Assembly (NCBI GenBank): GCA_963717145.1
Contig: OY970325.1
Coordinates: 1,376,001 to 1,440,000 of the forward strand
Reading direction: 5' to 3'
DNA length: 64,000 nucleotides
Origin: an uncultured Armatimonadetes bacterium
Lineage (GTDB): Bacteria; Armatimonadota; UBA5829; DTJY01
Shown here: positions 15,143-61,984 of the stretch, in pieces
Numbering within the stretch: the first letter of the stretch is position 1
How the letters are laid out: each line of letters opens with the position of its first letter
Notes under the pieces: generated by a model
The model's input: the letters and a program-made list of their open reading frames with translations, nothing else
Told to the model about the DNA's origin: nothing
Database searches by the model: none
Translations under genes and position numbers: made by a program

Positions 15143-15805
15143 CTACGCCGCCAGCTCACCCCTGGCCGCGGTCGTCGCCTCAGCGGACGAGGAACTCAGC
15201 TCGGTCGCCTTCGTTCCCCGGTAGCGGGCCACGTACTGATAGTCCGCCGCCGATCCGACGATCGTATCGGTGTAGGGCGAAGAGGTAGCGAAGTTGACCA
15301 ACTGATATTGGGTCTCGCCGCTCTTCTTTCGGTAGATGTTGCAGCCCAGGACACCTGCGGGCTTGCCGTTCGTGCGCTCGTTCTGCGGCGTCGGGCCGAA
15401 ATGAACGATCACCGAGCCGACCATCGACTCCAGATACAGCGAGGGCGGAGTCAGCAGCTCGATCGGTGTGGGCGACTGCACCGTGTCGTCGCGTCCCAGG
15501 CCGAGCAGTCCGCGAAGCTGATCCGTCATGCCGGGATGCTTGCAGATGCGCTGGATCAGAGGGCGCAGGATGGCCAGCGCCTCCTGGCGGTCTGTGTTCT
15601 TCAGCGCAATTGCAGAGGTTGCAAGCGCCTTCTGAAGCTGGTAGTTGGTGAGTGAATCGATGAACGCACCGCTCGCAGTGGTGATTGGGGTGAGGTTGGC
15701 GGGAATCAGGCCGACCATGCCTGCGTTGGTCGTCAGGTTGCTGACGAACGCCTGCAGCCATACGTTGAAATCGTTATCGCTTGTGGGTAGAACGTTTCTT
15801 GCCAA
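15143..15805 (-). CDS. Array-associated hypothetical protein, copy 1 (helical N-terminus, FN3-like C-terminus)
   Basis: TTG start with GGAGG RBS; clear similarity to 31605-32264 and 60734-61417. Confidence 0.85.
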   Translation of the reverse strand: MARNVLPTSDNDFNVWLQAFVSNLTTNAGMVGLIPANLTPITTASGAFIDSLTNYQLQKALATSAIALKNTDRQEALAILRPLIQRICKHPGMTDQLRGLLGLGRDDTVQSPTPIELLTPPSLYLESMVGSVIVHFGPTPQNERTNGKPAGVLGCNIYRKKSGETQYQLVNFATSSPYTDTIVGSAADYQYVARYRGTKATELSSSSAEATTAARGELAA

Positions 15806-15885
15806 GGGAATACCTCCCCAATTATGGTGTACCCGTGCGGCAGTCCGGGTCGACGATCGGTGACGGAATCCAAGTTTTTGAGGCG

Positions 15886-16051
15886 TTATTCCCGCGGAAT
15901 GACGTCCACTTCACGCGGAAGTACGACCACTTCCCGCGGAAGTGAGACCACTCCACGCGGAGGTTCGCCTTAAAAACATTTTTAAGCGCCACTTCCGGCG
16001 GAGGTTCGCCTTAAAAACGTTTTTGAGGGCCACTCCACGCGGAGGTCCGCC
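15886..16051. repeat. ~21-bp periodic array of two palindromic unit types
   Basis: Six CACTTCCCGCGGAAGT-like units and two TTAAAAAC(A/G)TTTTT(A/G)AG units. Confidence 0.9.
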
Positions 16052-16381
16052 TCATACGCTTGTTTCCTCGGGCTACACAGGCGTTTTGCTCTTGCCTCGA
16101 AGCGTCTGCTCCGAACGCGCGACTGCGCCCTTCTTCACCGAACTTGTGGCCTCTGAACTGCCTACGGTGAGATCGCCGAACTGCGCGCTCCACCGCCGAG
16201 CCACTGGTTCTATTCCATACTGGTAGGAATACTTGGGAAGGTTTTTTGAGGTTCTTTCGTGAGGGTGTTGGAGGAACAAATACATCTACGTCGAATGAGA
16301 GACTGTGCCGAATCGGCGTATGCTTTGCTTGACTGCGGTCGGTGTGCTGCGAGAATAACACGGTGTGGGAGGGGCTCCAGA

Positions 16382-17917
16382 GTGGCGCATAAGAACAGCC
16401 TAGTAGCGACTTTGCTCAGAAGCTTGGATCTTGGGAGCTCTGTTGCTGAATCAGACGGATTGCTCGAAGTGGCGCGGGTGGAGACGTCGGCATTTGCGGA
16501 TCTTATAAGTGATCGCGTCGATCTCATACCCGGCACCAAGGGGTCGGGCAAGAGCGCTCTGTTCCGTATCTTCGTGGACTTTCTACCGGACTATTTGCTC
16601 ACTCAGCGAAAAGTCGTCGTCGCCCATGGTGTACAGACGCCAGGCGATCCTGTCTTCCATACCTTTACTGAGCGGTTCCAAAAACTGACTGAAGATGAGT
16701 TTATGAGCTTCTGGTGTATCTATCTTGTGTCGCTCGCTCATGAGCAGTTTGTCAAGGGCGACCGATATAAGGCTATACTCAAGACGGCCGGGGCTGAGGT
16801 GGATGCGTTTCGGCAGGCGTGCTTGGATGCAAGGATTCCGGAGATCACTGCGAAGAAGTCGCTTCGAGCGATTCTTGAGTGGTCTTTGAATGCACTTCGT
16901 CTATGGCGCCCGAAGCTCAGATACACTCCACCTGGCGAAGTGGGAGAGATGGAGCTTGATCTATTCGGTTCTGCGGAGGACACTGCAGACCATGCGGCAG
17001 TAGTACCCAACCATCCGGTACAGCCGGAGTATGTCAGCGCGATTAGAGAGGCCTTGGATGCTCTGCTTGCCAAGACTGATTACACTCTGTGGCTTATGGT
17101 CGACAGGCTGGATGAAGTATTCCCAAGGCGTTCCGAGCTTGAAAGAACTGCGCTCCGGGCGCTACTCCGTGCAATGCGCCAGTTCTCCACTCCGAGGATT
17201 CGTGTCAAGATCTTCCTGCGCGATGATATGCTAGATCATATTGTTCGTGGTGAGAATGGGTTTACCGCCCTAACGCATGTTACAGCGAGACAATCCGATA
17301 CTCTTCGCTGGACCTCCGAGCAGCTTCTAACGATGCTTGTGAAGCGGATATTTGCCAACGACTTGCTTCCACTTCGTCTAGGTGTCAACCGAGCACAGAT
17401 TGATGCGAGCGCCAAGTACCGGGAGGAGTGCTTTTACAAAGTTTTCCCCCCAACCGTATTCCACGGAGCCAAACAGAGTCCTACGCTACGCTGGATCTGT
17501 AACCGGTGCGCTGACGGACGCGGCGTTGTGACCCCGCGGGACGTGCTCGATCTCGTGATTCGCGCGAGACAGAAGCAAGAGGACACATGTTCCCATGATC
17601 CTGAAGGTAGCATGGACTATATAATAGACTCTCCGGCGATTCAGTATGGATATGAGGAGCTCTCGAAGCGCAAGCGCCAGACTTACCTTGAGGCTGAGTT
17701 CCCCCATCTCTGGAAGCACATCGAGAAGTTCATTGACGGGAAGGCTGAGTATGACGGGGAAGCTTTGCAGGTCATCTTGGGGTCGGATTGGCGGTCGATC
17801 GCTGATGACCTGGTGGCGATAGGATTTCTATCCAAGGCTACGAAGAGCGGACGGAACATGTACTCGATCCCATTCCTCTATCGGCATAGCCTAAACGTCA
17901 CACAAGGTAAGGCCTAG
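16382..17917 (+). CDS. P-loop ATPase, FunZ/Sll1717-like
   Basis: LDLGSSVAE, Walker A GTKGSGKS, Walker B LMVDRLDE, KIFLRDD and TPRD motifs. Confidence 0.8.
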   Translation: MAHKNSLVATLLRSLDLGSSVAESDGLLEVARVETSAFADLISDRVDLIPGTKGSGKSALFRIFVDFLPDYLLTQRKVVVAHGVQTPGDPVFHTFTERFQKLTEDEFMSFWCIYLVSLAHEQFVKGDRYKAILKTAGAEVDAFRQACLDARIPEITAKKSLRAILEWSLNALRLWRPKLRYTPPGEVGEMELDLFGSAEDTADHAAVVPNHPVQPEYVSAIREALDALLAKTDYTLWLMVDRLDEVFPRRSELERTALRALLRAMRQFSTPRIRVKIFLRDDMLDHIVRGENGFTALTHVTARQSDTLRWTSEQLLTMLVKRIFANDLLPLRLGVNRAQIDASAKYREECFYKVFPPTVFHGAKQSPTLRWICNRCADGRGVVTPRDVLDLVIRARQKQEDTCSHDPEGSMDYIIDSPAIQYGYEELSKRKRQTYLEAEFPHLWKHIEKFIDGKAEYDGEALQVILGSDWRSIADDLVAIGFLSKATKSGRNMYSIPFLYRHSLNVTQGKA

Positions 17918-18094
17918 CTGTGCAGTAGCAATCGAAGCTCACAGATCTCAAGGTGGCCCTGGCGCAGGAAAACGGGAACGGGGAATATTTGCCAAACAGC
18001 CAATGGTCTGGACCGGATATCGTCATGCCGTCCCACAAGAGAACGAACGCCTGCATCCAGGTCGCATGAACGAGAATGCCCAGAAGCGCTTGGG

Positions 18095-18778
18095 TCATAC
18101 CGGCGGTTCGAGCTTGGGAGGCTCGGGGGCGGGGGCGGGCTTCTTCGTCGTCTTGCCGGCGGTGACGAGTGCGTCCGCCAGGCCGTAGATGTACGCCAGG
18201 AAGAAGACGACTCCCGTCACCAGCACCGCCGGGCTCGTGACGTAGACGAACATCTGGAGCGTATTGACGTTCCTCGGGTACGGGGGCTGCAGGAACGCCC
18301 AACTCAGCAGGAAGATAACGAACGTGCCGAAGATGAGGGCCGCCTTCGTCAGCTCGCCGTTGTAGAGCTGCCCCAGACCGGGGACGAGCGCGCTGACAAA
18401 CGCAACCACCTGGCTTCTCTCCCGCGTCACTTGGTACTTCCCAGGGTTCTGCAGCATGTCCTGGGCCATCACCTTCGCCCGCTCGGCCTCGGCGATGTCG
18501 AGCGTTGTCCTGGCGAACTTCTTCTCCAGCGAGTCCTTCCCCGGAGCGTAGTCGAGCGCGGTCCGATACTCCGCAAGCGCGGCCTGGAGCTTCCCGGCGT
18601 CATAGAGCGAATCGCCGAGCATCTCCCGAATGAGCACGTCCTTCGGGTTGAGTTCGAGCGCCCGGCGGCACGTATCCTGGGCCTCCAGTGGCTGACCTCG
18701 CAGGCGGTGTAAGTTGGCCTTCGCGAGCAGGAGTTCCAGTTCGCGCTCGCGATCGATTCCGGGATTCTCTGTCGACAT
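18095..18778 (-). CDS. TPR protein with C-terminal membrane segment
   Basis: TPR helices (ALELNPKD); SALVPGLGQLYNG membrane motif. Confidence 0.8.
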   Translation of the reverse strand: MSTENPGIDRERELELLLAKANLHRLRGQPLEAQDTCRRALELNPKDVLIREMLGDSLYDAGKLQAALAEYRTALDYAPGKDSLEKKFARTTLDIAEAERAKVMAQDMLQNPGKYQVTRERSQVVAFVSALVPGLGQLYNGELTKAALIFGTFVIFLLSWAFLQPPYPRNVNTLQMFVYVTSPAVLVTGVVFFLAYIYGLADALVTAGKTTKKPAPAPEPPKLEPPV

Positions 18779-19153
18779 CTACGCCTCTGCCTGCACTTCC
18801 TCGGGGGACATCGGCGGGGGGCTGCCTTTCTCTGCGCCGCTCCAGTAGGCTTCGAGGCGGTAGAACTCCCGCTCCTCCGGCGCGAATATGTGGACGATCA
18901 CATCGCCGTAGTCGAGGAGCACCCAGGTGGCATGTTCGTAACCCTCCAGGCGCTTGCTCTTGATGCCGTTGTCGCGCAGTTTCTCGATGACGGCGTCGGC
19001 GATGCTTCGGATATGGACGTTGGAACTGCCGCTCGCGATGACGAGGACATCCGCCATGACGGTCCTGTTGCGAACCTCGACCTTTGCGGGGTCAAGGGCC
19101 TTCTTTTCGTCCATTGCTTCGAGTACCAGACTGGTCTTTTCCTCTGATGTCAT
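18779..19153 (-). CDS. rsfS: Ribosome silencing factor
   Basis: WVLLDYGDVIVHIF...REFYRLE.YW signature. Confidence 0.97.
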   Translation of the reverse strand: MTSEEKTSLVLEAMDEKKALDPAKVEVRNRTVMADVLVIASGSSNVHIRSIADAVIEKLRDNGIKSKRLEGYEHATWVLLDYGDVIVHIFAPEEREFYRLEAYWSGAEKGSPPPMSPEEVQAEA

Positions 19154-19168
19154 ACGTTTCCTTTCTTG

Positions 19169-19278
19169 CCAGCCAACTTCCCTGGGCACCGTAGGGGCGA
19201 TCCTTCAACGGTCGCCCGTTCGTTCAGGGGGGCGACCGTTGAAGGATCGCCCCTACGGTGCCCAGGGAAGCTGGCTGG
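19169..19278. repeat. REP doublet (GTAGGGGCGATCCTTCAACGGTCGCCC) with extended outer stem
   Basis: About 49-bp near-perfect inverted arms. Confidence 0.9.
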
Positions 19279-20514: not shown

Positions 20515-20516
20515 GT

Positions 20517-22237: not shown

Positions 22238-22252
22238 GTGGATAGGGTGTCA

Positions 22253-22352
22253 GGTGTCACCCCTCGCCGCGTTCGTGCAGGAGTTGAACTCCTGCACGCT
22301 GTACTGACATGCAGGAGTTCAACTCCTGCACGAACGCGGCGGGGGGGACACC
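22253..22352. repeat. Nested palindrome with two TGCAGGAGTT(G/C)AACTCCTGCA units
   Basis: Inverted arms between obgE and proB; related to 56510-56613. Confidence 0.85.
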
Positions 22353-22372
22353 AAATACCCTTAAACCTCAGG

Positions 22373-23674: not shown

Positions 23675-23699
23675 GGCTACCTCGGAGTGCGGGTCATCG

Positions 23700-27733: not shown

Positions 27734-30700
27734 GTGAGTAAAGACAACCCCATGCTTCACGAAAAGACCGAAGACCTGCTGCTCCAGAAGTGCAAGCAGC
27801 GACACAACGAGTTCGGTCAGTACCGTTACTGGTCTCCGCGCACGATCCCCGGCATCCGATACCGCGAGACGACCGCCTACGAGAAGATCGACGACGCACT
27901 GAAGGCTCAGGGCTGGCAGGACATCGCGATCGGCGACGAATGGGCCGGCGACGGTCAGTTCGCCTGGTTCCGCCTCCAGTTCGCCGTCCCGAAGGAATTC
28001 GACGGCAAGACGCTGGTCGCGATCCTCAAGTTCGGCCAGGGTGGATGGAACGGCGGCGAGGGCTGCCTCTTCATCGACGGCGTCCCGTACCAGGGGATCG
28101 ACGCCAATCACACCGATGTCGTGCTCGCGAAGAAGGCGAAGGCGGGCCAGAGGTACGACCTCGTGGTCGAGTGCGTCTCGACGCCGGTCTGGCAGAACCA
28201 GCGCCACAAGATCAAGCTCGAGCAGGCCGACATCGCCGCGCTGAACTACGACGTCCAGGACTACTGGTACGACCTCGGATTCATGACGAACATCGCCGAG
28301 CACCTCCCCTGGGGTAACCGACGCCGCGCGACGATCATCCGGACCGCCAACAAGAGCGTCGATGCCTTCGACTTCGAGGCCGCCGGCTTCGATGGTCTGG
28401 CATCAACGGCGAAGAACGCCCGAAAGATCATCGCCCCGCTCTATAAGAAGCCCGCCGACGCCAGCGCGATGGAGTTCGCGTGCGGCGGCCACTCCCACAT
28501 CGATGTCGCATGGTTGTGGCCCTACGCCGAGTCCGTGCGGAAGTGTTCCCGCACCTTCTCGACGGTCGATCGCCTGATGGACGAGTATCCCGACTACCTG
28601 TTCACGCAGAGCCAGGCGCAGCTTTACGAGTTCACGCAGGAGCACTACCCCGACCTCTACGAGCGCATCAAGAAGCGCGTGAAGGAGCGCCGCTTCGAGC
28701 CCCAGGGGAGCATGTGGGTCGAGGCCGACTGCAACGTCACCTCGGGCGAGTCGCTTGTCCGGCAGATCCTCCTCGGCAAAACACTGTTCATGGATGAGTT
28801 CGGTATCGAGACCGACATCCTCTGGCTGCCGGACGTATTCGGGTACAGCGCGGCTCTCCCCCAAATCCTGAAGAAGTCGGGCGTCGACTACTTCACGACG
28901 ATCAAGATAAGCTGGAGCCAGTTCAACAAGTTCCCATACTCCAGCTTCTGGTGGGAGGGCATCGACGGAACGCGCGTGCTCGCCCACTTCCCGCCGAGCA
29001 ACGATTACAACGCGCGCATCAACGCGAATCAACTCCTCCCCGCCGCCGAGAACTACCGCGAGAAGGACCGCTCGGACATCGCGCTTTACTCCTACGGCTA
29101 CGGCGATGGAGGCGGAGGACCGACCAGAGAGCATCTCGAGCACCTGAAGCGGGCCCGGGACCTGGAGGGCATCCCCAAGTGCACGCCGATGTGGGCCGCC
29201 GACTTCTTCAAGCAGCTCGTCAAGCGGTCTGAGGACCTGCCATCCTGGGTCGGCGAGCTCTACCTCGAATACCATCGGGGCACGTACACCACTCAGTCGC
29301 GGAACAAGCGCGCGAACCGGAAGTCGGAGCTGCTCCTCCGGGACGCTGAGATGGCGGCCGGCCTCGCGTGGATGACGAAAGGGTTGAAGTACCCGCACGA
29401 CAGCATCACACGCGCGTGGAAGCTCGTCTGCAAGAACCAGTTCCACGATGTCATCCCCGGCACGTCGGTCACCGATGTCTACAAGGACACGGCGCTCGAC
29501 TACAAGGAGATCGCAGGGATCGGGGCGGCGGCTCGAACCGCCGGGCTCGATAAGCTCGCGTCGCCCGTAGGGGAGGCCTTCAACGGCCTCCCGCATGGGC
29601 GGGTGTCCGTAGGGGAGGCCTTCAACGGCCTCCCGCCGGAAGGATTGGGCGTCGCAGACGGGAGGCCGTTGAAGGCCTCCCCTACGGGCGCTCCGTCGGA
29701 CGGCCAGACCATCATGCTGTTCAACAGCCTCTCGTGGGACCGCATCGATCCCGCCAAGGTATCGCTTCCCGGCAAGGCATCCGGCTGGCACGTCGAGACT
29801 CACGACGGAGAGCCCGTGCCGTCGCAGGCATCGAAGAAGGACCCCTCCGTCCTCTGGTTCGAGCCGCAAGTCCCCGGCATCGGCATCGGCGCACTCAAGC
29901 TGGTGAAGGGCGCAGGGAAGGCCGTGTCAGAGATCAAGGTGTCGGAGAGCGGCATCGAGAACTCGTTCTACAAGATCAAGCTCGACAAGAGCGGCCTCAT
30001 CACCTCGATCCTCGATAAACGATCGAAGCGCGAGGTCCTCCCTCAGGGTGAGAAGGCCAACAAGCTCCAGCTCTTCGAGGACAAGCCCATATCGTGGGAT
30101 GCGTGGGACATCGAGTTCTACTACCGCGACAAGGGCCGCGACCTCACCGACGTGCCCGTAGGGGAGGCCTTCAACGGCCTCCCATCCTCCGGGGGGATCG
30201 ATGCTCGCGCGTCCGGGAGGCCGTTGAAGGCCTCCCCTACGGAGATCAAGGTCGAGGACGCCGGGCCGGTGCGCGGCTCGCTCAAGATCAGGCGCAAGTT
30301 CGGCTCGTCCGAGATCGAGCAGCGGATCGTCCTCTGGGCGGCAAGCCCGCGCATCGACTTCGAGACCCGCGTCGATTGGCACGAGACGAAGAAGATGCTC
30401 AAGGTGGCGTTCCCCGTAGACGTGCATGCGAGCCATGCGCGATTCGACATCCAGTTCGGAAGCGTCGACCGCCCGACCCACTGGAACACGAGTTGGGACT
30501 TCGCGCGGCTGGAGGTCGCCGCCCAGAAATGGGTCGATATGTCGCAGGCCGACCATGGCGTCAGCCTCCTGAACGACTGCAAGTACGGCCACGACGTGCA
30601 CGAGAACGTCATGCGCCTGACGCTCCTCCGCTCGCCGAAGGAGCCCGACCCGACCGCGGACATGGGCGAGCACTTCTTCACCTACTCCCTGCTCCCCCAC

Positions 30701-31180
30701 GAGGGCGACTGGCGCGACTCCGAGACCGTCCGCCGCGCCTACGAGCTGAACGTCCCGACCGTGGCCTGGCTTTCGGACGTAACCCCCCCCAGCCCCCCCG
30801 CAACGGAGGGGAGTGGAGAGGGATCCGGAGCGAGAGTGGGCGCGTCAGGGAGCAAAGGTCAGGCGTCGGCACGAGGTAAACTCCCCTCCGTTGCGGGGGG
30901 GCTGGGGGGGGTTACGGGCAACCGCCTCCTCAGCGTGGATGCGCCGAACGTGATCATCGAGACCGTGAAGAAGGCCGAGAAGGAGGACGCGCTCGTCGTG
31001 CGCATGTACGAGTGCGCGGGGATGGATGCCGCCTTCCGCCTCGAAGCGGGGTTCAAGGTCGCACACGCCGTCGAGTGCGATCTCCTGGAGCGCGACCTGG
31101 CAGCCCTGAAGCTCGAGGGGAACTGCCTCCCGCTCTCGATGAAGCCGTTCGAGATCAAGACAGTGAAGCTGAGAGCATAG
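27734..31180 (+). CDS. Alpha-mannosidase, GH38, with three in-frame palindromic insertions
   Basis: HSHIDVAWLW, WLPDVFGY, GYGDGGGGP, ELYLEYHRGTYT and NQFHD motifs. Confidence 0.95.
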   Translation: MSKDNPMLHEKTEDLLLQKCKQRHNEFGQYRYWSPRTIPGIRYRETTAYEKIDDALKAQGWQDIAIGDEWAGDGQFAWFRLQFAVPKEFDGKTLVAILKFGQGGWNGGEGCLFIDGVPYQGIDANHTDVVLAKKAKAGQRYDLVVECVSTPVWQNQRHKIKLEQADIAALNYDVQDYWYDLGFMTNIAEHLPWGNRRRATIIRTANKSVDAFDFEAAGFDGLASTAKNARKIIAPLYKKPADASAMEFACGGHSHIDVAWLWPYAESVRKCSRTFSTVDRLMDEYPDYLFTQSQAQLYEFTQEHYPDLYERIKKRVKERRFEPQGSMWVEADCNVTSGESLVRQILLGKTLFMDEFGIETDILWLPDVFGYSAALPQILKKSGVDYFTTIKISWSQFNKFPYSSFWWEGIDGTRVLAHFPPSNDYNARINANQLLPAAENYREKDRSDIALYSYGYGDGGGGPTREHLEHLKRARDLEGIPKCTPMWAADFFKQLVKRSEDLPSWVGELYLEYHRGTYTTQSRNKRANRKSELLLRDAEMAAGLAWMTKGLKYPHDSITRAWKLVCKNQFHDVIPGTSVTDVYKDTALDYKEIAGIGAAARTAGLDKLASPVGEAFNGLPHGRVSVGEAFNGLPPEGLGVADGRPLKASPTGAPSDGQTIMLFNSLSWDRIDPAKVSLPGKASGWHVETHDGEPVPSQASKKDPSVLWFEPQVPGIGIGALKLVKGAGKAVSEIKVSESGIENSFYKIKLDKSGLITSILDKRSKREVLPQGEKANKLQLFEDKPISWDAWDIEFYYRDKGRDLTDVPVGEAFNGLPSSGGIDARASGRPLKASPTEIKVEDAGPVRGSLKIRRKFGSSEIEQRIVLWAASPRIDFETRVDWHETKKMLKVAFPVDVHASHARFDIQFGSVDRPTHWNTSWDFARLEVAAQKWVDMSQADHGVSLLNDCKYGHDVHENVMRLTLLRSPKEPDPTADMGEHFFTYSLLPHEGDWRDSETVRRAYELNVPTVAWLSDVTPPSPPATEGSGEGSGARVGASGSKGQASARGKLPSVAGGLGGVTGNRLLSVDAPNVIIETVKKAEKEDALVVRMYECAGMDAAFRLEAGFKVAHAVECDLLERDLAALKLEGNCLPLSMKPFEIKTVKLRA
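29562..29690. repeat. Intragenic REP triplet (two direct, one inverted GTAGGGGAGGCCTTCAACGGCCTCCC)
   Basis: Identical 26-mers at 29567, 29609 and inverted at 29660. Confidence 0.95.
30156..30242. repeat. Intragenic REP doublet
   Basis: Same 26-mer at 30158 and inverted at 30215. Confidence 0.95.
30778..30916. repeat. Intragenic inverted repeat with C-run/G-run arms
   Basis: About 37-bp inverted arms at 30778-30814 and 30880-30916. Confidence 0.9.
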
Positions 31181-31191: not shown

Positions 31192-31518
31192 ATGGGGATG
31201 AAGACTCATGATTCCCGCCTCGGCATCGCGTCCACGATCATCGCGGCGGTCGTGTCCCTTTGCATTGCCGGACTGATGGTGTTCGCGAGTCACTTCGCCG
31301 TAACGACAAGTGACCCGTCTTACGACCCTGAGCCCTATTTCCGGTTTCTGCACAGGATGCTCAACGGCATGTTCTTTCTTTCGGCCGTCGGGATAGGCGT
31401 GGGGATCGTCGGGCTGCTGCAGAAGGACACTGACCATACCTTCGCCCGAATCGGTGTTCTCGTGAATGTGTTACTCACCGGCACACTCTGGCCAACCGGT
31501 TCTAGCTGGCTCTACTAA
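31192..31518 (+). CDS. Small membrane protein, paralog of 14673-15005
   Basis: Shared motifs; GGAGGG RBS. Confidence 0.75.
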   Translation: MGMKTHDSRLGIASTIIAAVVSLCIAGLMVFASHFAVTTSDPSYDPEPYFRFLHRMLNGMFFLSAVGIGVGIVGLLQKDTDHTFARIGVLVNVLLTGTLWPTGSSWLY

Positions 31519-31604: not shown

Positions 31605-32264
31605 CTACGCCACAAGCGCGCCGCGCGCCGCAATCGTGCTCGGAGCGGACGACTGACCGGTGTCCTTCGCGTTGTTACCGCGATACTGCACCACGTAAGT
31701 GTAGTCCGACCCGTTGCCGGCAATCGTGTCCTCGTAGGGCGATGCCGTCTGATAGGCGACGAGCGAATAGCTCGTCTCCCCGGCCTTCTGCCGCCAGACG
31801 TTGCATCCCTTGACGCCCGCAGGCTTGCCGTTGATCTTCTCGTTCCCCGGCTCGGTGCCGAAATGCACCCACACAGTGCCCGGCTCGGTCTCCAGATAGA
31901 TCTTCGGCACATCCGGCGGCATCGCGCCCGCAGTGTGCATGGTGGTCGAGCGGACCGGCAGCCCGAGTTCGCCGCGAAGCGCGTCGGTCATGCCCGGCGC
32001 ATGCTGGACACGCTGCACGAGCGGACGAATCGCCTCTCCCGCCGCGACCTTCTTGGCCTTCTTGTCATTCATCGCCGAGTTGAACGCCGTGCGCTTGTCG
32101 CCGAGATTCGTGAAGCTCCCGTTGTAAGCGGTGTACGCAGTCTGCAGCGGCAGGATATCTGCCGGGTCGAGCCCGAGTTCCACCAAATGGGTATCCAGAC
32201 CCGAGACGAGATTGTACATCCACGATGCAAGTTCCGCATCGTTCGAAGGTAAGTAATCCGACAT
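31605..32264 (-). CDS. Array-associated hypothetical protein, copy 2
   Basis: AGGAGGA RBS; NGKPAGV.GCN...SPY.DTI.G...DY.YV..YRG shared with copy 1. Confidence 0.87.
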   Translation of the reverse strand: MSDYLPSNDAELASWMYNLVSGLDTHLVELGLDPADILPLQTAYTAYNGSFTNLGDKRTAFNSAMNDKKAKKVAAGEAIRPLVQRVQHAPGMTDALRGELGLPVRSTTMHTAGAMPPDVPKIYLETEPGTVWVHFGTEPGNEKINGKPAGVKGCNVWRQKAGETSYSLVAYQTASPYEDTIAGNGSDYTYVVQYRGNNAKDTGQSSAPSTIAARGALVA

Positions 32265-32333: not shown

Positions 32334-32501
32334 TTACACCCGGTGTAAGCCCTCCTACACCCGGTGCAAGGCTTCCTACACCCGGTGTAAGGCTGCCTAC
32401 ACCCGGTGTAGGACGAGTTACACCGGGTGTAGGAAAAGCTACACGCGGTGCAAGCCCGGCTACACCCGATGCAGGACGAGCTACACCCGGTGCAAGGCCC
32501 C
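32334..32501. repeat. 8 x 21-bp array with palindromic core (C/T)TACACCCGGTGTA
   Basis: Units start at 32334, 32355, 32376, 32397, 32418, 32439, 32460 and 32481. Confidence 0.95.
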
Positions 32502-32828
32502 TGAGTTCAGGCTCAGGCGCGGATCATGCGGTTGCGAGGACAGCAGTTGTGGCCGGGTCTGAGGTCGAACTTCCTGAGAGACACCGGGAAACTGCCCACC
32601 GAGGGCTCGCCACCCGATCGCCCGCCACTCCACCATCCGCAATCTGAGTTGTGCAAGGTACGACCTACACTATTATTGTAGGCACGAGGCACGGATTTCT
32701 TCAGGTATTTGTTGCAGGTATTTTCGGTTTACACCGCGAGCGTAATGCGCTATAGTATGACCGGTTGAGAAGTCTCCGACCGGTAGACCAGCGGCTCTCC
32801 GACCGACGAGGGCTGAAAGGTGCGCGCC

Positions 32829-34994
32829 ATGACTGAGTCAGACAACTTCGATTTCCGGTCCATCCGCCTCATCGATGACCAGCCGATCGATGAACTGGAG
32901 CGAGATCACCTCGGGCTGATGCCGTGGGCCAAGATGATCGCGGGGACGGCGGTCGGAACGCAGGGGCCGTTCACCATCGGCGTGCACGCGAAGTGGGGAC
33001 TCGGCAAGACTACCCTCCTCCGGCTGACCCAGCGTCTGATAGAACGCCAGAACCCCGAAGTCGTCACCGTGTGGTTCAACGCCTGGCAGTTCGAGCGCGA
33101 GGAGCATCCGCTCTTCCCACTCATCGCGGCCATTGCGGATGAGATCGAGCGGAAGGCGCCCTTGTCAGAGGTCACTACAGGCTCGAAACGACTGCGGAGC
33201 ATCGGGCGGTCTCTGCGGGCGCTCTGCCGAGGCATGAAGTTCAAGGCCGAGGTCGGGATTCCAGGCGTGGGAAGTTTCTCAGGCGAGCTGGATTGCGAGA
33301 AGGCGCTCGAGGCCGAGGAGCAGTTCAATGAGGAGGCCAACCCGCTCCTGGCCGAGTCGATGTACCACTCGGCGTTCGGCGCGCTGGAGGCGGCCACCAG
33401 GCGCGAGGACGAAGACGACGGGCTGAAGATCGTTGTCTTCGTGGACGACCTGGATCGCTGCCAGCCGGACAAGGCGGTCCACCTCCTGGAGAACGTCAAG
33501 CTCATCCTGGCGCAACGGGGGTTCGTCTTCGTGCTTGCGGTTGACTGCGACGTGCTGGAGGGCTACCTGGAAAAGCGCTACGTCGATTCATGCGGCGACG
33601 GCGCTCGCGGGCGGGGGCGCTTCTACATGGAGAAGATCATCCAGCTCCCCGTCCACATCCCCTCCCACCGCTCCCGGTTCGCCAGGTTCGTCGAGAGGAT
33701 TGTGAATGATCTGGGCGACAAGGAGAGTCCTGAGATTCAGGCGCTCACGGACATCCAGCAAGTGCTTGTCACCGGCGCGGGACTGAACCCACGCAGCCTC
33801 ATCCGCCTCGTGAACAACTTCCTGCTCGACTGCAAACTCTGGCCGATGATCCCGCACGTCGAGAACTACGAAGCGTTGACCAAGGACTTGGCGGCTGCAC
33901 TTGCCTTCAACCGCATTCTCGATCACGACCTGGACGGCTTGTTCACGGCTCTGATAAGCGACCAGGAACTGTGTGAAACCATACGATCGAGAGATGAGAC
34001 GACGCTACTGGGGTATATGGACGAAGTGTCAAGAAAGGACCGTGCTGAGGAGCGTTCGCTGGAGCATCACTCCTTGGAACAGGTAGAAGCTCAACGATCT
34101 CAGGTAGTCCGAGAGCTTCTGCGCCGCCCGGAGCTTCTGGCCGCGCTTGCAGAGCATGGGAAGGCTTGGCTGCGGGACGGAGAGCTTCGGCGAGTGGTGA
34201 ACGAGTTCGCACAGACTGATCGGGCTACCGGATCAGTCGAGTTCCCGGAGCCGATCGCAGAGGCCATCAGAAAGGAGCTTGGTCTGCAGGCCGACGAGCC
34301 GATCCCCTTTGGGCGGCTCACCGAGGTCAAGAATTTGAACCTGGGGCCGAGCAACGTGGGGGACGCCGACCTTGCGCATCTCCACAGACTCTCCGGACTG
34401 CGGAGCCTCGGGCTTTGGGACACCGAAGTGACCGATGCTGGGCTCGCGCATCTCAAGGGATTCTCCGCACTGCAAAGCCTCAGCCTGACGCGCACCAGGG
34501 TCACGGATGAAGGACTCGCCTTTCTAGAGAGGCTCTCTGGACTGCAGAGGCTCTACCTGGGGGACCTTCAGGTGACGGATGCCGGGCTCGCACATCTCAA
34601 GGGGCTGTCCGCACTGCAAGAACTCCACCTGTGGGAGACCAGCGTGAGGGGCTGGGGGCTTGTGCATATCAAGGACTTGTCGGGACTTCGTGAGCTTCAC
34701 CTGCAAGGCAGCCAGGTAGCGAATGGGGGGCTCATGCATCTTAGGAGCCTCTATGGACTGCGGGTCCTCAACATGGCGAGCACTAACATGACAGATGCCG
34801 GACTCGCACATCTCAAAGGACTCTCCGGGCTGCAAGAACTCTACCTGTCGGGCACGCAGGTGACGGACGTCGGGCTCGCCCATCTCAAGGGACTCCAAGA
34901 GCTGCGGTGGCTGTACCTGTCGGGCACGCAGGTGACGGATGCCGGTGTGCGCGAACTCGAGAAGGCGATTCCCGGCCTCAATGTCGACCGATGA
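32829..34994 (+). CDS. KAP-family P-loop NTPase fused to leucine-rich repeats
   Basis: WGLGKT, WFNAWQF, VFVDDLDRC, YMEKIIQLP and NPR motifs; nine 24-aa LRRs. Confidence 0.9.
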   Translation: MTESDNFDFRSIRLIDDQPIDELERDHLGLMPWAKMIAGTAVGTQGPFTIGVHAKWGLGKTTLLRLTQRLIERQNPEVVTVWFNAWQFEREEHPLFPLIAAIADEIERKAPLSEVTTGSKRLRSIGRSLRALCRGMKFKAEVGIPGVGSFSGELDCEKALEAEEQFNEEANPLLAESMYHSAFGALEAATRREDEDDGLKIVVFVDDLDRCQPDKAVHLLENVKLILAQRGFVFVLAVDCDVLEGYLEKRYVDSCGDGARGRGRFYMEKIIQLPVHIPSHRSRFARFVERIVNDLGDKESPEIQALTDIQQVLVTGAGLNPRSLIRLVNNFLLDCKLWPMIPHVENYEALTKDLAAALAFNRILDHDLDGLFTALISDQELCETIRSRDETTLLGYMDEVSRKDRAEERSLEHHSLEQVEAQRSQVVRELLRRPELLAALAEHGKAWLRDGELRRVVNEFAQTDRATGSVEFPEPIAEAIRKELGLQADEPIPFGRLTEVKNLNLGPSNVGDADLAHLHRLSGLRSLGLWDTEVTDAGLAHLKGFSALQSLSLTRTRVTDEGLAFLERLSGLQRLYLGDLQVTDAGLAHLKGLSALQELHLWETSVRGWGLVHIKDLSGLRELHLQGSQVANGGLMHLRSLYGLRVLNMASTNMTDAGLAHLKGLSGLQELYLSGTQVTDVGLAHLKGLQELRWLYLSGTQVTDAGVRELEKAIPGLNVDR

Positions 34995-54005: not shown

Positions 54006-54034
54006 TTGCCGCATGGACGGCCGATCGGTATAAT
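54006..54034 (+). promoter_or_regulatory. Sigma70-type promoter
   Basis: TTGCCG-N17-TATAAT. Confidence 0.55.
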
Positions 54035-54060
54035 GGTGCCGGATAACCGAGGTAGGTTGG

Positions 54061-54194
54061 ATAGGAGTTCACGATTGTTGATGGTAGCGCTTCGCGCATG
54101 TCATTCTGAACGCAGTGAAGAATCTGTCTGCGCACGGCCAGATTCTTCACTGCGTTCAGAATGACATGCGCTACCCTTGATCGTGAACTCCTGG
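54061..54194. mobile_element. MITE with IS66-type ends
   Basis: GAGTTCACGAT terminal IRs, flanks TAGGTTGG/GAGGTTGG, internal 30-bp palindrome. Confidence 0.8.
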
Positions 54195-54204
54195 GAGGTT
54201 GGAC

Positions 54205-55359: not shown

Positions 55360-55464
55360 ATCACTTGCATGGTCACATCGTAGGGGACGGCGGCCGTTCC
55401 CTACGAAGCTGCTCTCCCGCTGTTTGCTTTCCCTCCCCCGTCATGGTAATATACTCCCGAACTA

Positions 55465-55558
55465 TCCGCTGGGGGTGCTGCGAAAGCGGCTGAGACTCCG
55501 AAGTCATCGGAGATCCCTTAGAACCTGATCCGGTTAATACCGGCGTAGGGAACGCGGT
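55465..55558 (+). promoter_or_regulatory. TPP riboswitch
   Basis: GGGGTGC...GCTGAGA...CCCTTAGAACCTGATCCGGTTAATACCGGCGTAGGGAA upstream of thi4. Confidence 0.97.
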
Positions 55559-55660
55559 TGCCATCCTGAACTTGATTCAGGACGTGAGATCGAAGACCAC
55601 ATCTTCACCCCTCATGCGCCCGGCATCCTCCAGCGAGATCAACTACTGGAGGCTATCCAA

Positions 55661-56488: not shown

Positions 56489-56509
56489 ACTGGCCGCCAC
56501 ATGTCAAAC

Positions 56510-56613
56510 GGGGCAGGAGTCCAACTCCTGCCCCAACGTATCTGTGTCGGGGCAGGAGTCCAACTCCTGCCCCAACGTATCGTGTGTTGGGGCAGGAGTT
56601 GGACTCCTGCCCC
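56510..56613. repeat. REP-like triplet GGGGCAGGAGTCCAACTCCTGCCCC (two direct, one inverted)
   Basis: Visible repeats between convergent thi4 and htpX, followed by TTCACCG heptamers. Confidence 0.88.
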
Positions 56614-56640
56614 AACTACTCACCGTTCACCGTTCACCGA

Positions 56641-57489: not shown

Positions 57490-57661
57490 TGTCCCCTCCT
57501 GGTGTCCTCATATTGTCCTACGACCGTTCGCCCCGCTTGGTTCCCTGCTTGAATGCAGGTCGGCTGTGAAGGTTTCTCCTGTGGAGACCGTCTAATAGTA
57601 GCAGAGAGCCCGCGGCCGGATGAGATCGAGCCGCGCTCAACTGACACTGGGGAGGGAAACC

Positions 57662-59341
57662 ATGCTGAGAAGACCCGCTATCTGCTCGTTCGTACTGCTC
57701 ATGCTCGTCATAACGCCGGTGCTGTCGGCGACCGCCGTCTCGGTCCAGACGAAGACGACATCGGTCGCCGCGTTCAAGAACGGCCTCGGGTTCTTCGTCC
57801 GAGAGGGGACAGCCACGTTGAAGGATGGATGGGCGACCTCGGACGAGGTCCCGACCGCCGCGCTCGGGACGTTCTGGGTGGGATCGCCGAAAGCCGGCGT
57901 CTCCGTCGAGCGACTGCTCGCCCTGCAGGAGGACAATACGCTATCCGTCCCGGCGATCACCGTCGCGGAGATTCTCGAATCGAACGTCGGCAAGCAGGTG
58001 AAGATCACCTATGGCGACAAGGTGATCACGGGCAAGCTGCTCGCGGTGCCTCAGGACAGAGCGCCAACGGGCCCGGTTCAGCCGCTCTATCCGGCTTCAT
58101 CCTATATTCCGCCCACCTCTCAGTCTCAGTTGGTGCTCGTCGAGACCGCGACCGGCACAGTGGCGATCACGAAATCCTCGATCTCGATGGTGGAGTTCGA
58201 AGGCAAGGTGAACTCCGACCGTGAGATCAAAGAGAAGGTCAAGCGGCTGAAGTTCAAGCTCGCCGGCGCGAAGGAAAGCGCTCCTATCACCATCGGGTAT
58301 CTCCAGAAAGGAGTCTCCTGGTCGCCCGCATATCTTCTCGAACTACTCGACGATAAGACCGCCCGCATCACGATGCAGGGCCTGTTGGTAAACGATGTGG
58401 AGGATATCGAGGGAGCAGATGTCAGCTTCGTCGTCGGCTACCCTAACTTCATGTTCTCCGACATGGTGTCGCCGCTGTCCCTCACTCAGTCTATCAGCCA
58501 GTTCATCGACAACCTGGCCAACCCGAGTTCCCGATCGAGAAGCGGAGCGGGCGGATACGGCGGGATCATGGCCCAGTCGATCGCCTACAACACTGCCGAG
58601 TATGACTACAGCGGATCGCCCGCGCCCGATTTCGGCTACTCCAGCATGAAGGAGACGCCGGGCGCTCAGGAGGAGGACCTCTTCCTCTACCACATGACGG
58701 ACGTCTCGCTCAGGAAGGGCGAGCGGGCATACTACACGGTCTTCTCCGCCGAAGTGCCGTTCGAGCACGTCTACAAGTGGACCGTCAACGACACCTCAGG
58801 GATACAACCTAACGGCTACGTCTCCTCGAACCGTAATGACACCGCGCCGCCCCCGGAGGACCAGGTGTGGCACGCGCTCAAGCTTACCAACAGCTCGAAG
58901 TTCCCGTGGACGACCGCGCCTGCGATGGCGATGTCGAAGGGTAAACCGCTCGCTCAGGACACCCTCTCATACACGCCGAAAGGCGCTGAGGGTGACCTGA
59001 AGCTGACGATTGCCACCGACATCAGGGCAAAGACGTCGGAACTCGAGAAGTCCCGAGAGAACGCCAGTGGAGTTCCATTCAGCAGCAGCAGCAGCTTCAA
59101 TAAGGTCACTTCAGAAGGCACGCTTACCCTCAAGAGCTTCAAGTCGAGGCCGGTCACGGTGCAGGTGACGAAGACGATCATCGGCGAGGTGACTTCCACG
59201 GGCTTGAATGGGAAGGTCGAGAAGATGGGCGTCAAGATACGGGCGGTCAACCCGACTTCCGTCGTGACCTGGGACGTGCCGCTCGATCCCGGCGAGGAGA
59301 AGACGCTCGATTATGCCTACTTCACGTACATCAGGTACTAG
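57662..59341 (+). CDS. Secreted DUF4139-like protein
   Basis: Signal peptide; V..FKNG, YL..GVSW.P.Y and DLFLY motifs. Confidence 0.7.
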   Translation: MLRRPAICSFVLLMLVITPVLSATAVSVQTKTTSVAAFKNGLGFFVREGTATLKDGWATSDEVPTAALGTFWVGSPKAGVSVERLLALQEDNTLSVPAITVAEILESNVGKQVKITYGDKVITGKLLAVPQDRAPTGPVQPLYPASSYIPPTSQSQLVLVETATGTVAITKSSISMVEFEGKVNSDREIKEKVKRLKFKLAGAKESAPITIGYLQKGVSWSPAYLLELLDDKTARITMQGLLVNDVEDIEGADVSFVVGYPNFMFSDMVSPLSLTQSISQFIDNLANPSSRSRSGAGGYGGIMAQSIAYNTAEYDYSGSPAPDFGYSSMKETPGAQEEDLFLYHMTDVSLRKGERAYYTVFSAEVPFEHVYKWTVNDTSGIQPNGYVSSNRNDTAPPPEDQVWHALKLTNSSKFPWTTAPAMAMSKGKPLAQDTLSYTPKGAEGDLKLTIATDIRAKTSELEKSRENASGVPFSSSSSFNKVTSEGTLTLKSFKSRPVTVQVTKTIIGEVTSTGLNGKVEKMGVKIRAVNPTSVVTWDVPLDPGEEKTLDYAYFTYIRY

Positions 59342-59391
59342 GGCAGAATGGCTGATTTCCCCGGTCCACGGAGGTGGACTCAGACGTGGAA

Positions 59392-59503
59392 AAGGGCGGG
59401 GCCATCACTTCGGCCCCGCCCTTCAGGTATCACGGTACTTCATCTTGCTCTGTATTACTCTCCCCCCCCCGACATCCGCGTTCATCTGCGTCTATCGGCG
59501 GTT
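59392..59503. repeat. Hairpin plus nonamer-repeat block, left direct repeat
   Basis: Matches 60586-60673. Confidence 0.85.
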
Positions 59504-59644
59504 GCTATCTGGCCACCTGCTTGCCGACATCGTTTGGCGCGGACCTTATTGACAGACTGTTGACACTGTGATATTGTGCCCTTGGCTTCAAGAGGTGATG
59601 GCTGTCTTGGTATCGGGAATACTTTTTGAGGAAAGGAACAAGAA

Positions 59645-60529
59645 ATGAAGACCAGATCGCTGATCTCGGAAACGGCACTGAGGAGACTGTGGGTGGGAAT
59701 GCTAACCAAGGACAGAAAGGACGCTGGGACACCGGATGAGATCGTCCTGATCGTCAACCAATCCGGCGCGGATAGACTACATCACACCTTTCTTCATCCA
59801 CCGGCACCGGTAAACACATATAATGTCCCTGCAGGGCCACCTTTGGGACAGAATAGAGGACGAGCTGATCTTTACTCGTTAGACGTCCTAGGTAACGGAA
59901 TCGATTCTAACCTCGATGATACCTACATCCGCATTGGCATCAGGGGAAGAAATGCGTGGCTTCCAGAGCATCTTGTGCTTTGGGGAGAGACAGTAGCGAA
60001 TGAAGTTGTTCCTTTTGGCATTGAAACAGACCTGAATACATGGCTGAGCACGGACAAGGATGAGGGACCAACCTCCCTTCCCATAAGGCGCATTCCGCTA
60101 GGTAACCCAATGATGCCAATTGACAGGATATTGGTCGTGATGGAGACAGATGCAAACAAGAAGTCTGGCACTGAGGATGTGATCACTGTGCAGATCTTCG
60201 GCCCTTCTCCGGATTACTGGGTTAATGATTGGATACCTCGTACGCCGCAGCTCGATCAGGATAGGGGCAAAGCCAATCTGTATTTTCTTGACTCCATGGC
60301 ACCATTCAACAGGGCTAACCTCGCGCCCAATTCGATTCGCATCGGAATCATGGGCGAGGATAACTGGGAGCCAAAGCGCTTTTTCATCTTTGGTATTGAC
60401 ACTGCTCAAGGACGTCCGGGCGCTCTTGTTCCCTTGCTCTACATTGATGATTGGGATAAAGGTCCCTTGAGTACAAAACCTTCACTTGGGAAGCCTTATA
60501 TCGATTTCTCGCCCTTCACATCGCTATAG
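59645..60529 (+). CDS. Hypothetical protein with two tandem PLAT/LH2-like domains
   Basis: Internal duplication T.....(A/S)GT.D.I...Q.RG.A.LY.LD...IRIGI.G...W.P...LST; AT-richer than flanks. Confidence 0.7.
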   Translation: MKTRSLISETALRRLWVGMLTKDRKDAGTPDEIVLIVNQSGADRLHHTFLHPPAPVNTYNVPAGPPLGQNRGRADLYSLDVLGNGIDSNLDDTYIRIGIRGRNAWLPEHLVLWGETVANEVVPFGIETDLNTWLSTDKDEGPTSLPIRRIPLGNPMMPIDRILVVMETDANKKSGTEDVITVQIFGPSPDYWVNDWIPRTPQLDQDRGKANLYFLDSMAPFNRANLAPNSIRIGIMGEDNWEPKRFFIFGIDTAQGRPGALVPLLYIDDWDKGPLSTKPSLGKPYIDFSPFTSL

Positions 60530-60585
60530 GCAGACAAGCCGTGGGTAGCTCCACATGCTTCGATGGAATGACACACTGAAACCTG

Positions 60586-60673
60586 AAGGGCGAGGCCATC
60601 ACATCGGCCCCGCCCTTCAGGTATTACGTACTACTCCCCCGACATCCGCGTTCATCTGCGTCCATCGGCGGTT
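60586..60673. repeat. Hairpin plus nonamer-repeat block, right direct repeat
   Basis: Matches 59392-59503. Confidence 0.85.
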
Positions 60674-60733
60674 ACTGCTTCCGGTCTGCAGCCTGCGGTT
60701 TTCCACTCCGCATTCCGCATTCCGCATTCCGCA

Positions 60734-61417
60734 TTACGCTGCAATCGTCGCGCTCTGGGTCTCGGACCAACCGCCCTTCAGACCACTGGAATAGACCCAC
60801 CGCAGCTTATAATGCGCCTGCTTGTTTCCATCGCCCGGCGGGAACGGCACCGAGACCGTGTTCCGAGTCGACATGTTTACGTACCGCATGACCAGCTCGG
60901 GAACATCCGTGTCCACGGGCGGCTCGCCGACCTTCACCCAGACCTCGACCGCCTTCACACCCTCCGGCTTGCCCAGGGATACGACGCCCTGGTTGTCGTT
61001 CTGGATGCGGAGCGTATGCCTGCCGATCTGCGCGATGTTGATACCCGCGAGCGGCCTGTCTGCCAGAAGCTCGACATCCTGCGGGACAGGCGCAGTCTCG
61101 CCGCGCCTCGGAATCCCGAGGGCATCGCGATCCTGGTTAGTGGTCGCGGGGCATGACTGTACCCGGGCGGCAACTGTTCTGATCTCATCGACCAGAGTCC
61201 CACGCTTCACCTTCTTGTTCGACACCTCGCCCCTATAGGTAGCACGAGCGGCGTTAGTATCGTTGCGAGCCGTGTTGAACTCCGGCTCGGCAGCATTAAG
61301 AGCGGCAACATCCGCCGCCACCAACCCGAACTTCGCAAGGTTGGCCGCAAGATAAGTTGTAAACGTGGACGTCCACACCTGCAGATCGACGTCACTTTTA
61401 GGGACAAAATCCCCCAT
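60734..61417 (-). CDS. Array-associated hypothetical protein, copy 3
   Basis: AGGAGG RBS; DFVP.SD..L..W, GL..AD, T...R..LGIP and GKPEGV motifs shared with copies 1 and 2. Confidence 0.85.
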   Translation of the reverse strand: MGDFVPKSDVDLQVWTSTFTTYLAANLAKFGLVAADVAALNAAEPEFNTARNDTNAARATYRGEVSNKKVKRGTLVDEIRTVAARVQSCPATTNQDRDALGIPRRGETAPVPQDVELLADRPLAGINIAQIGRHTLRIQNDNQGVVSLGKPEGVKAVEVWVKVGEPPVDTDVPELVMRYVNMSTRNTVSVPFPPGDGNKQAHYKLRWVYSSGLKGGWSETQSATIAA

Positions 61418-61440
61418 ACTTCCCCTCCTTGATTCGTGGG

Positions 61441-61572
61441 ATAAGAGTTCACGGATCATGGCCGGCAGATGTCATTCCTACCGCAGTGAAGAATCCGGCC
61501 TGCAAACAGATTCTTCACTGCGGTAGGAATGACATCCGCGAAGCGCTACTATCAACGATCCTGAACTCTTAC
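61441..61572. mobile_element. MITE with IS66-type ends
   Basis: ATAAGAGTTCACG...TGAACTCTTAC ends, flanks TTCGTGGG/TTGGTGGG, internal palindrome. Confidence 0.82.
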
Positions 61573-61708
61573 TTGGTGGGTACTTCGGCGGCATTTAGAT
61601 TTACCGTCATTTACCATTATCGGAGGGATAAGCTGGTAACTCTACCAGTGTTTCAATATTTCTTGCGATTGCATGTGGAGTCTGATGCAGGGAGGTCGGG
61701 CGCCCGTG

Positions 61709-61984
61709 GGAACCATGCCTGGTGTCAACGGAAAGCATACCTGGTTTCAGCCGAACTCACACGTGGTTTCAACTGAAAGCATGTCCACTTTCAGCAGAAC
61801 TCACACATGGTTTCAGCAGAACTCACACGTGGTTTCAGCAGAACCCATACATGGTTTCAGCAGAACCCACACAGGGTTTCTGCAGAACTCACACGTGGTA
61901 ATCGCAGAAAACATGCATGGTTTCTGCAGAACTCACACAGGGTTTCCATAGAAACCATGCCTGTCTTCTGTAGAAAGCACACCT
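61709..61984. repeat. 12.5 x 22-bp array, consensus GAA(A/C)(C/T)CA(C/T)(A/G)C(A/G)TGGTTTC(A/T)GCA
   Basis: Units every 22 bp from 61709 to 61973 without indels. Confidence 0.95.

Follow-up and report, generated by a model that had tools for sequence, protein, structure and literature searches.

Helically phased repeat arrays with locus-specific units upstream of a paralogous family of predicted helical-FN3 proteins in an uncultured Armatimonadetes bacterium

The window analysed here is a stretch of 64,000 nucleotides from an uncultured Armatimonadetes bacterium (assembly GCA_963717145.1, contig OY970325.1, positions 1,376,001 to 1,440,000 of the forward strand), and it carries three copies of a module in which a minus-strand gene of unassigned family is preceded by a row of tandem repeats with a period near two turns of the DNA helix. 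The gene of module 1 (15143-15805, minus strand) starts with TTG and encodes a protein of 220 aa, that of module 2 (31605-32264, minus strand) encodes 219 aa, and that of module 3 (60734-61417, minus strand) encodes 227 aa and ends in ATIAA. All three are present in the list of open reading frames (ORFs) of the window, and a ribosome site of the GGAGG type precedes the start in each. Alignment and a family hidden Markov model (HMM) place the first two in clade B and the third in clade A of the family described below; the proteins of modules 2 and 3 are 45% and 24% identical to that of module 1. The original prediction, made from the sequence alone, had named these genes as three paralogs, and so they are.

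Tandem Repeats Finder (TRF), run over the whole window, detects an array upstream of each gene. Array 1 (15886-16052) is called as 15889-15961 (21 bp, 3.5 copies) plus 15948-16052 (41 bp, 2.6 copies); it consists of a conserved 17-bp dyad core with spacers of 4 bp or 24 bp, giving a period of 21 and then 41, and it ends 84 bp upstream of the module 1 start. Array 2 (32334-32501; called at 32335-32496, 21 bp, 7.7 copies) is the cleanest of the three. Its eight units keep an exact 21-bp register, each with a conserved 15-bp palindrome and a variable 6-bp spacer in which the mismatches concentrate (p 0.001), and it ends 71 bp upstream of the module 2 start. Array 3 (61709-61984; called at 61714-61982, 22 bp, 9.3 copies, also at 44 and 66) lies 297-565 bp upstream of the module 3 start and holds about twelve 22-bp units with a higher order of 44 and 66 bp. 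Autocorrelation agrees with TRF, peaking at 0.76 at 21 for module 2, 0.70 at 22 for module 3 and 0.54 at 41 for module 1. Perfect inverted repeats with 5-bp arms, counted against 500 shuffles, number 14 in array 1 (shuffle mean 1.5, maximum 9), 16 in array 2 (mean 1.6, maximum 8) and 7 in array 3 (mean 2.4, maximum 12). The dyad symmetry that had been ascribed to all three arrays thus holds for modules 1 and 2, which exceed every shuffle, and not for module 3, which stays within chance. The further claims that the unit sequences differ between the three loci and that the window has no such arrays elsewhere stand: the only other array with a period above 15 is a REP-like (repetitive extragenic palindromic) one of 39 bp at 56509-56616, which is unrelated to the module (a GC-rich palindrome in 2.7 copies, with a related array at genome position 3300287).

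The window sits in a single contig of 5.37 Mb with 60.6% G+C. A protein search of this genome gave 24 matches, and an iterated profile, converged over 30,801 six-frame ORFs, defines a family of 25 members; a profile of the N-terminal domain only found no further members in this genome. The family falls into two clades, B with ten members and A with fifteen, all of the latter ending in ATIAA. An array lies upstream of 24 of the 25 paralogs (TRF, period at least 15, within 700 bp of the start), with periods of 21, 22, 24, 42, 43, 63, 66, 72, 84 or 85; 43-bp units are present in two of these arrays, and copy number ranges from 2 to 18. A uniform test, which scored a non-heptamer array of the 21 family, at least 50 bp long and near the 5' end, over a proxy gene set, found one at 17 of 22 family ORFs versus 54 of 4001 others (odds ratio 249, Fisher p 5e-27), and counted among the 54 are REP-type arrays of 41-44 bp and genes whose intergenic region also borders a family gene. 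Such arrays are therefore rare before unrelated genes, in line with the prediction. They also occur away from the family: of the non-heptamer arrays that reach 60 bp and have a period of 21-22, 16 belong to family loci, 13 fall within long ORFs and 8 stand in intergenic DNA elsewhere.

The association extends beyond the source genome. When 201 Armatimonadota genomes were sampled, the profile matched 19, the source genome counted, and the foreign set comprises 42 loci in 18 genomes. An array of the 21 family lies within 600 bp upstream at 25 of these loci and within 600 bp downstream at 2, so that homologs are enriched for upstream arrays, as had been expected of a functional pair. With no period filter, 26 of the 42 have some upstream array, with smallest periods of 21 (18 loci), 42 (5), 23 (2) and 17 (1), and 4 have a downstream array, with periods of 10, 18, 21 and 64. 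The 52 arrays linked to the family have a period of 21.24 (sd 0.61) per 21-equivalent, a figure whose foreign part was collected with a period filter and for which the unfiltered foreign count serves as the check. Searches with single proteins found no relative of the module 2 protein in genome contigs and 3 loci for a foreign member; viral contigs gave none. A metagenome scan yielded 5 loci; one with only 30 bases upstream was set aside, and 21-bp arrays lie just upstream at three of the four usable ones (L104, L106 and L107) and not at L105. The array association spans at least 18 further genomes from several families of the phylum.

What is kept between these loci is the architecture and not the sequence. 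By all-against-all blastn, the units of the family arrays are common to only one pair of family genes, a recent duplicate, and no motif is common to the inside of the arrays. With the same exception, paralogous loci lose their nucleotide similarity at the start codon. Together with the counts in the paralogs (24/25), the foreign loci (25/42) and the metagenome (3/4), this bears out the proposal that architecture is retained while sequence turns over. One option put forward along with it, a self-dispersing module, was rejected, as only the coding part is common to the copies. The duplicate pair is 90.7% identical from -309 to +897 (about 1.2 kb), and its arrays, of 207 and 173 bp, differ by about one 42-bp unit. 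Such a difference is what would be expected of hypermutable minisatellites, arising by slippage at palindromic operators or promoter regions and persisting either as neutral by-products or as copy-number contingency switches. The spread of copy numbers, the complete turnover of units between paralogs and a family that is multi-copy, dispersed and apparently monocistronic all suit this explanation. We nevertheless regard it as improbable: the old arrays keep their core while the spacers diverge, which speaks for selection on the units and not for recent expansion; an association found again in so many genomes is hard to explain as a by-product; and a change of one unit keeps the helical phase, which would make a poor on/off switch.

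About a dozen similar arrays precede unrelated genes, among them genes for an MFS transporter and for YcxB-like, UPF0236, GH99-like, beta-helix, SSF/Kelch and TIR-NB-ARC-TPR proteins. Five of these arrays have units in common with family arrays. The units of array 895089 resemble those of module 2; arrays 546374 and 1805383, which no family gene adjoins, carry the 43-bp unit of 460274, and 546374 additionally carries the 22-bp unit of 2876927; and the units of arrays 4716195 and 1292442 resemble those of 524337. Two of the five, at 546374-546997 and 1805383-1805672, are compound arrays in which the 22-bp unit of 2876927 is combined with the 43-bp unit of 460274. Beside the five unlinked arrays no degraded family genes were found, tblastn at E < 1 giving only noise. 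Given that family units are reused where no family pseudogene adjoins, the set looks like a small regulon.

The encoded proteins have no family match in Pfam, NCBIfam, PHROG or PADLOC, and sequence profiles of the PDB give coiled-coil noise and a weak Ig/FN3 match only. Homologs are nonetheless abundant: among representatives of clusters at 50% identity, an E threshold of 1e-3 yields 4323 matches, one of 1e-10 yields 1702 and one of 1e-30 yields 91, and their length is almost always 210-230 residues. None of ten homologs that were looked up has a functional name (nine are unnamed and one is a 'hypothetical protein'), the neighbours in the atlas are clusters without names, of which one has fn3 on 13-32% of its members, and no fused longer forms were found, which is weak evidence. 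Searches with tblastn against 72,556 plasmids and against phage collections gave no match. An AlphaFold (AF2) model of the module 1 protein (mean predicted local distance difference test score, pLDDT, 89.0; predicted template modelling score, pTM, 0.50) has helices at 10-26, 35-88 and 95-101, followed by a linker rich in proline and, at 122-214, a sandwich of seven strands. Foldseek against the PDB returns at least 241 matches at E <= 1e-3, all FN3 among the matches listed, the best being 8ot5_E (E 1.1e-5, 102 columns), and they include titin and receptor FN3 domains. VIA-align gives Z of 11.6-9.9 and a root-mean-square deviation of about 2-3 A over about 90 residues of the model range 111-220, and the viral structural matches are the FN3 parts of tail and fibre proteins. 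On this model the C-terminal half is a genuine FN3 domain, so that the helical/FN3-like protein first described is recovered by model and fold searches alike; by sequence, Pfam fn3 is unreached, except by one foreign member at E 0.1. In the N-terminal domain hydrophobic positions recur every 3.5 residues. Variation among paralogs is greatest in the middle, exposed part of the long helix, which has the nearly invariant K68, R80 and R97 on its flanks. The FN3 part is basic in clade A. A reading of the C-terminal '-AA' as a degradation tag was rejected: the conserved letters form part of the final FN3 strand, and in a diverse set of 117 members just 41 have AA at the end.

A candidate promoter element accompanies the genes. 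The motif CCGATAAT is the only 8-mer found in at least 10 of the 25 family upstream regions; exact copies stand at 10 loci against an expectation of 0.2, and 18 of 25 have it when one mismatch is allowed. The next 8-mers, at 6-7 loci, are two one-base-shifted overlaps of it and one unrelated word. Genome-wide there are 108 copies, 43% of them intergenic, against 13% of the genome that is intergenic by proxy and 46% for TATAAT. The motif stands 42-54 nt before the start codon in three members, and one foreign locus has CCTATAAT at the equivalent place. We take it for a putative -10 box. Two layouts are seen relative to it. In eleven loci, all of clade A, the array ends 78-165 bp upstream of the motif; module 3, with the motif at 61616-61623 (minus strand) between array and gene, is one of these. 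In six clade-B loci, and in four foreign loci (L028, L045, L055 and L058), the array lies between motif and start codon. Modules 1 and 2 have no clear CCGATAAT motif, and the distances at which their arrays end resemble this second layout. In four clade-A members (window about 61575-61605, minus strand; 460274; 2876927; 5282690) a hairpin with a GC stem and a conserved loop beginning CTAATCTG stands just after CCGATAAT and could represent an RNA element of the leader that is peculiar to this family. At 61466-61540, the presumed leader of module 3 also contains a near-perfect inverted repeat with arms of about 28 bp, relatives of which repeat near other loci, for example beside array 4716195 (78-84% identity); it is probably an insertion of the MITE (miniature inverted-repeat transposable element) or REP type.

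The second layout raises the question of whether the arrays act as RNA, transcribed in the mRNA leader as a row of hairpins that would control stability or translation, or bind the encoded protein or another factor. Position in six clade-B members and four foreign loci fits such a leader, as does that of the arrays of modules 1 and 2. For the array of module 2, folding is far more favourable on the gene's strand (-104.7 versus -82.4 kcal/mol, z -11), and 16 of 24 arrays are more stable on that strand, a preference that is not decisive. When the non-Watson-Crick positions in the best hairpins of the gene's strand are counted, the variants of module 2 comprise 7 G.T versus 1 A.C, so that nearly all keep pairing through G.U, and clade B overall has 18 versus 7. 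Clade A shows no strand bias, with 17 G.T versus 13 A.C and a strand preference of 8 versus 6 arrays. The wobble asymmetry is therefore suggestive in clade B only and indecisive, and because the units of one array are copies of each other, these counts overstate their independence. Eleven clade-A arrays, upstream of the -10-like motif, would fall outside that transcript; the quantised periods in multiples of 21 go unexplained; and in the window no Rfam family is found on the arrays at the gathering score, the only hit being a riboswitch elsewhere. Overall we consider a hairpin leader unlikely as a general explanation, and live for clade B, the clade of modules 1 and 2. Translation of the arrays as heptad-repeat peptides was rejected, as periods of 22, 43 and 85 bp break the frame and the ribosome site follows the array.

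Two features of the arrays speak for a function at the level of DNA. Periods stay at 21 and its multiples, even 43 and 85, which fits a helical ruler that an RNA function would not need, and an element read on DNA tolerates placement on either side of CCGATAAT. This need not involve recognition of sequence. Phased bends could make the DNA curved or superhelical and so attract a general nucleoid protein, with silencing or insulation as the outcome, or alter promoter strength, while the unit sequence drifts. A constant period with free sequence is what such an element would have, and arrays do stand on both sides of the promoter-like motif and before unrelated genes. Moreover, 9 of 23 scanned neighbour ORFs are of conflict or defence type, a count that can serve only as a lead, and genes of this kind are typical silencing targets in other bacteria. 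The nine are a KAP NTPase with leucine-rich repeats (LRR), a STAND-like NTPase, TIR-WD40-Ras, TIR-NB-ARC-TPR, HD-CE/AAA/TPR, DUF4365, AAA_13, an Eco57I/MmeI-type methylase and an N6_N4 methylase with NA-iREase1. Curvature, however, needs no conserved dyad cores with varying spacers, the reuse of family units at five arrays elsewhere argues for sequence recognition, and the strong preference for one protein family is left unexplained. Bends alone are in our view a rather poor prospect.

We tentatively favour a reading in which phased sites are recognised on DNA by sequence. The module would comprise a gene that stands alone, a promoter that serves this gene, and a private series of sites bound in a sequence-specific manner, recurring every two helical turns (21-22 bp, or 42, 43, 63, 84 or 85 bp for compound units). 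Proteins bound at this spacing would all sit on the same face of the helix and would cooperate in binding, and such binding would set transcription of the adjacent gene. The binder would be specific to the locus. Since the family gene is the only locus-specific gene present, we infer that its product may recognise its own array, which would amount to autoregulation; it would act as a dimer on dyad units, with recognition placed in the long, paralog-variable helix 35-88, and would act also at the few other genes that carry its units. This reading explains five facts together: the strict link between gene and array, the fixed period, the free units with conserved cores, the two-sided placement and the reused units. 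The parts do not deserve equal trust. That the arrays act as DNA comes close to an even chance, the phased-site reading as a whole falls somewhat further short of one, and self-binding, with the product of the family gene as the binder, is distinctly doubtful. The association, the period, the turnover of sequence, the conserved cores and the fold are observations.

Several results weigh against this reading. The searches of Pfam, NCBIfam, PHROG, PADLOC and the PDB sequence profiles revealed no DNA-binding domain of a known kind, and a fold search with the whole-protein model gave structural matches confined to residues of about 111-220, that is, to a domain of a type that usually binds proteins. 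The proteins are mostly acidic, with a median isoelectric point (pI) of 6.4, and the N-terminal domain in which recognition is placed has a pI of about 5 in most copies. One family member, 3015715, lacks an array, as do 17 of the 42 foreign loci, and four of the arrays in this genome are short, with only 2.4-3.6 copies. Four arrays (481841, 2835623, 4541368 and 4664445) show neither dyad symmetry nor excess folding, and about seven of the arrays before unrelated genes have no unit of any family array. The wobble asymmetries in module 2 and clade B point to RNA, and the promoter is a putative one, assigned from the motif.

Similar architectures are known from plasmids. Plasmid iterons, bound by Rep initiators (R6K, RK2, P1, F), are repeats of about 17-22 bp at a spacing of about 22 bp. 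The family arrays are likewise direct repeats phased at two helical turns, and like iterons they are specific to their system and stand beside the gene of what would here too be a binding, autoregulating protein. Unlike in those systems, no Rep family is recognised by Pfam, the copies are many on a single 5.37-Mb chromosome, and nothing points to an origin function. Partition centromeres are closer in position: tandem direct repeats lie upstream of the operon, one dimer binds each unit and the binder represses its own promoter, according to PMC5016525, and in sopC of the F plasmid a unit of 43 bp that contains a 16-bp inverted repeat occurs 12 times, according to PMC3177203. The family shares with type Ib parS/parH, type II parC-ParR, type III tubC-TubR and sopC-SopB the tandem repeats at a single locus, often with an inverted repeat, and the system-specific sequence. 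It shares the upstream position at 24 of its 25 loci in this genome and at 25 of the 42 foreign ones, and, with sopC, units of 43 bp in two arrays. It differs in being 25 dispersed chromosomal copies without a plasmid match and in a protein of long helices plus FN3, in which no ribbon-helix-helix or helix-turn-helix Pfam domain is found; nor did Pfam find a ParA, ParM or TubZ motor family among the 23 neighbour ORFs scanned, which are part of the neighbours of the 25 loci. The Omega repressor of pSM19035 binds arrays at its own and a few other promoters, with affinity set by repeat number, again according to PMC5016525, and in this it resembles the family arrays together with the five arrays elsewhere that carry their units. 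Omega units, however, are 7-bp heptads read by a ribbon-helix-helix protein, whereas the family has units of at least 21 bp and a different fold.

Other repeat classes are more distant. REP sequences and REPINs (REP doublets forming hairpins), which exist as large numbers of nearly identical copies scattered through a genome, differ from the family arrays, which in the all-against-all comparison are unique apart from the one duplicate pair and the five unit-sharing arrays, the REP-type arrays of 41-44 bp forming separate large clusters. Clustered regularly interspaced short palindromic repeats (CRISPR) alternate an unchanging repeat with unique spacers of about its own length and have a period of about 55-75 bp, unlike the family period of 21-22 bp with a variable part of 4-6 bp. 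Membership in the iteron and partition families fails on the features examined: Pfam finds no motor family among the scanned neighbours and no Rep family, the copies are chromosomal and many, and no known DNA-binding domain is recognised in the protein. The original statement that no characterised system is like this one must thus be narrowed: the array architecture itself is shared with iterons and partition centromeres, and it is the membership in either that does not hold. A word search of the literature for 21-bp tandem repeats before paralogs or for tandem repeats in Armatimonadota gave nothing relevant, which is a weak basis for novelty. As it stands, the module looks like an undescribed gene-control module.

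A bolder possibility, which we hold to be unlikely, is that the family is a new class of sequence-specific nucleic-acid binders, built from a long recognition helix plus FN3 and diversifying together with private arrays, so that one genome would hold about 25 orthogonal, self-controlling pairs. If so, these pairs would be mutually insulated switches, each controlling itself and a few genes, many of them beside immune-type genes, and such switches would be spread over thousands of homolog clusters in several phyla. Regardless, a family of more than 4000 clusters at 50% identity that had no name, domain model or role is now tied to a recognisable and testable cis element. If the proteins bind their own arrays, they would represent a new scaffold for DNA or RNA recognition with dozens of non-cross-reacting specificities per genome, of use for the study of specificity co-evolution and as a source of orthogonal parts. 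Failing such binding, the arrays would be a clear case of selection on helical phase, not on sequence, in bacterial promoter regions, and a new marker of regulatory architecture in a little-studied phylum.

No conserved neighbour or partner gene of the family was found. In the window, module 1 has as its divergent neighbour a gene for a STAND-like P-loop NTPase (16259-17917, plus strand; Pfam nSTAND1 at E 3.1e-5, below its cut-off; PADLOC PDC-M28C at E 2.6e-16), and module 2 a gene for a KAP-family NTPase with leucine-rich repeats (32820-34994, plus strand; Pfam KAP_NTPase at E 4.2e-38, and LRR; PADLOC QatA/PifA at about 1e-29). Between array 2 and the latter gene lies an isolated palindrome at 32664-32682, read directly from the sequence, which has the same outer half-sites as the array 2 unit around a 7-bp AT-rich centre. 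The neighbour of module 3 (62191-63225) is a membrane protein that weakly matches a TRADD-N-associated transmembrane domain. Neighbours of the STAND, KAP, TIR and restriction-modification types raise the question of whether the module controls immune islands; the defence-type neighbourhood is a lead only.

Heptamer repeats had been reported after each of the three genes. They are present after gene 1, where a GC hairpin at 15084-15109 continues into heptamers at 15109-15142 (sequence and TRF), and at the end of gene 3, where TRF calls a generic run at 60707-60739; after gene 2 there are degenerate heptamers, seen by eye only and without a TRF row. Period-7 arrays account for 115 TRF rows genome-wide and occur behind many unrelated genes, so that they are not specific to the module. 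They are like the short tandemly repeated repetitive (STRR) heptamers of cyanobacterial type in being tandem 7-nt units in intergenic gaps, and the STRR-like runs of the window lie outside the module.

Two ORFs for membrane proteins of about 110 aa, at 14673-15005 and 31192-31518 (both plus strand), convergently follow modules 1 and 2. They have a common '...TFARIGV..N.LL...' stretch, which suggests that the duplicated unit may once have included the membrane-protein gene. Just downstream of module 2, a 1148-aa ORF (27734-31180, plus strand) contains the peptide VGEAFNGLP three times in frame, and the DNA word encoding it recurs in the REP-type arrays of 41-44 bp in this genome; to judge by the sequence, the copies look like palindromic repeats inserted in frame. 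The one Rfam family in the window mentioned above is a thiamine pyrophosphate (TPP) riboswitch at 55461-55569 on the plus strand (RF00059, 79.5 bits).

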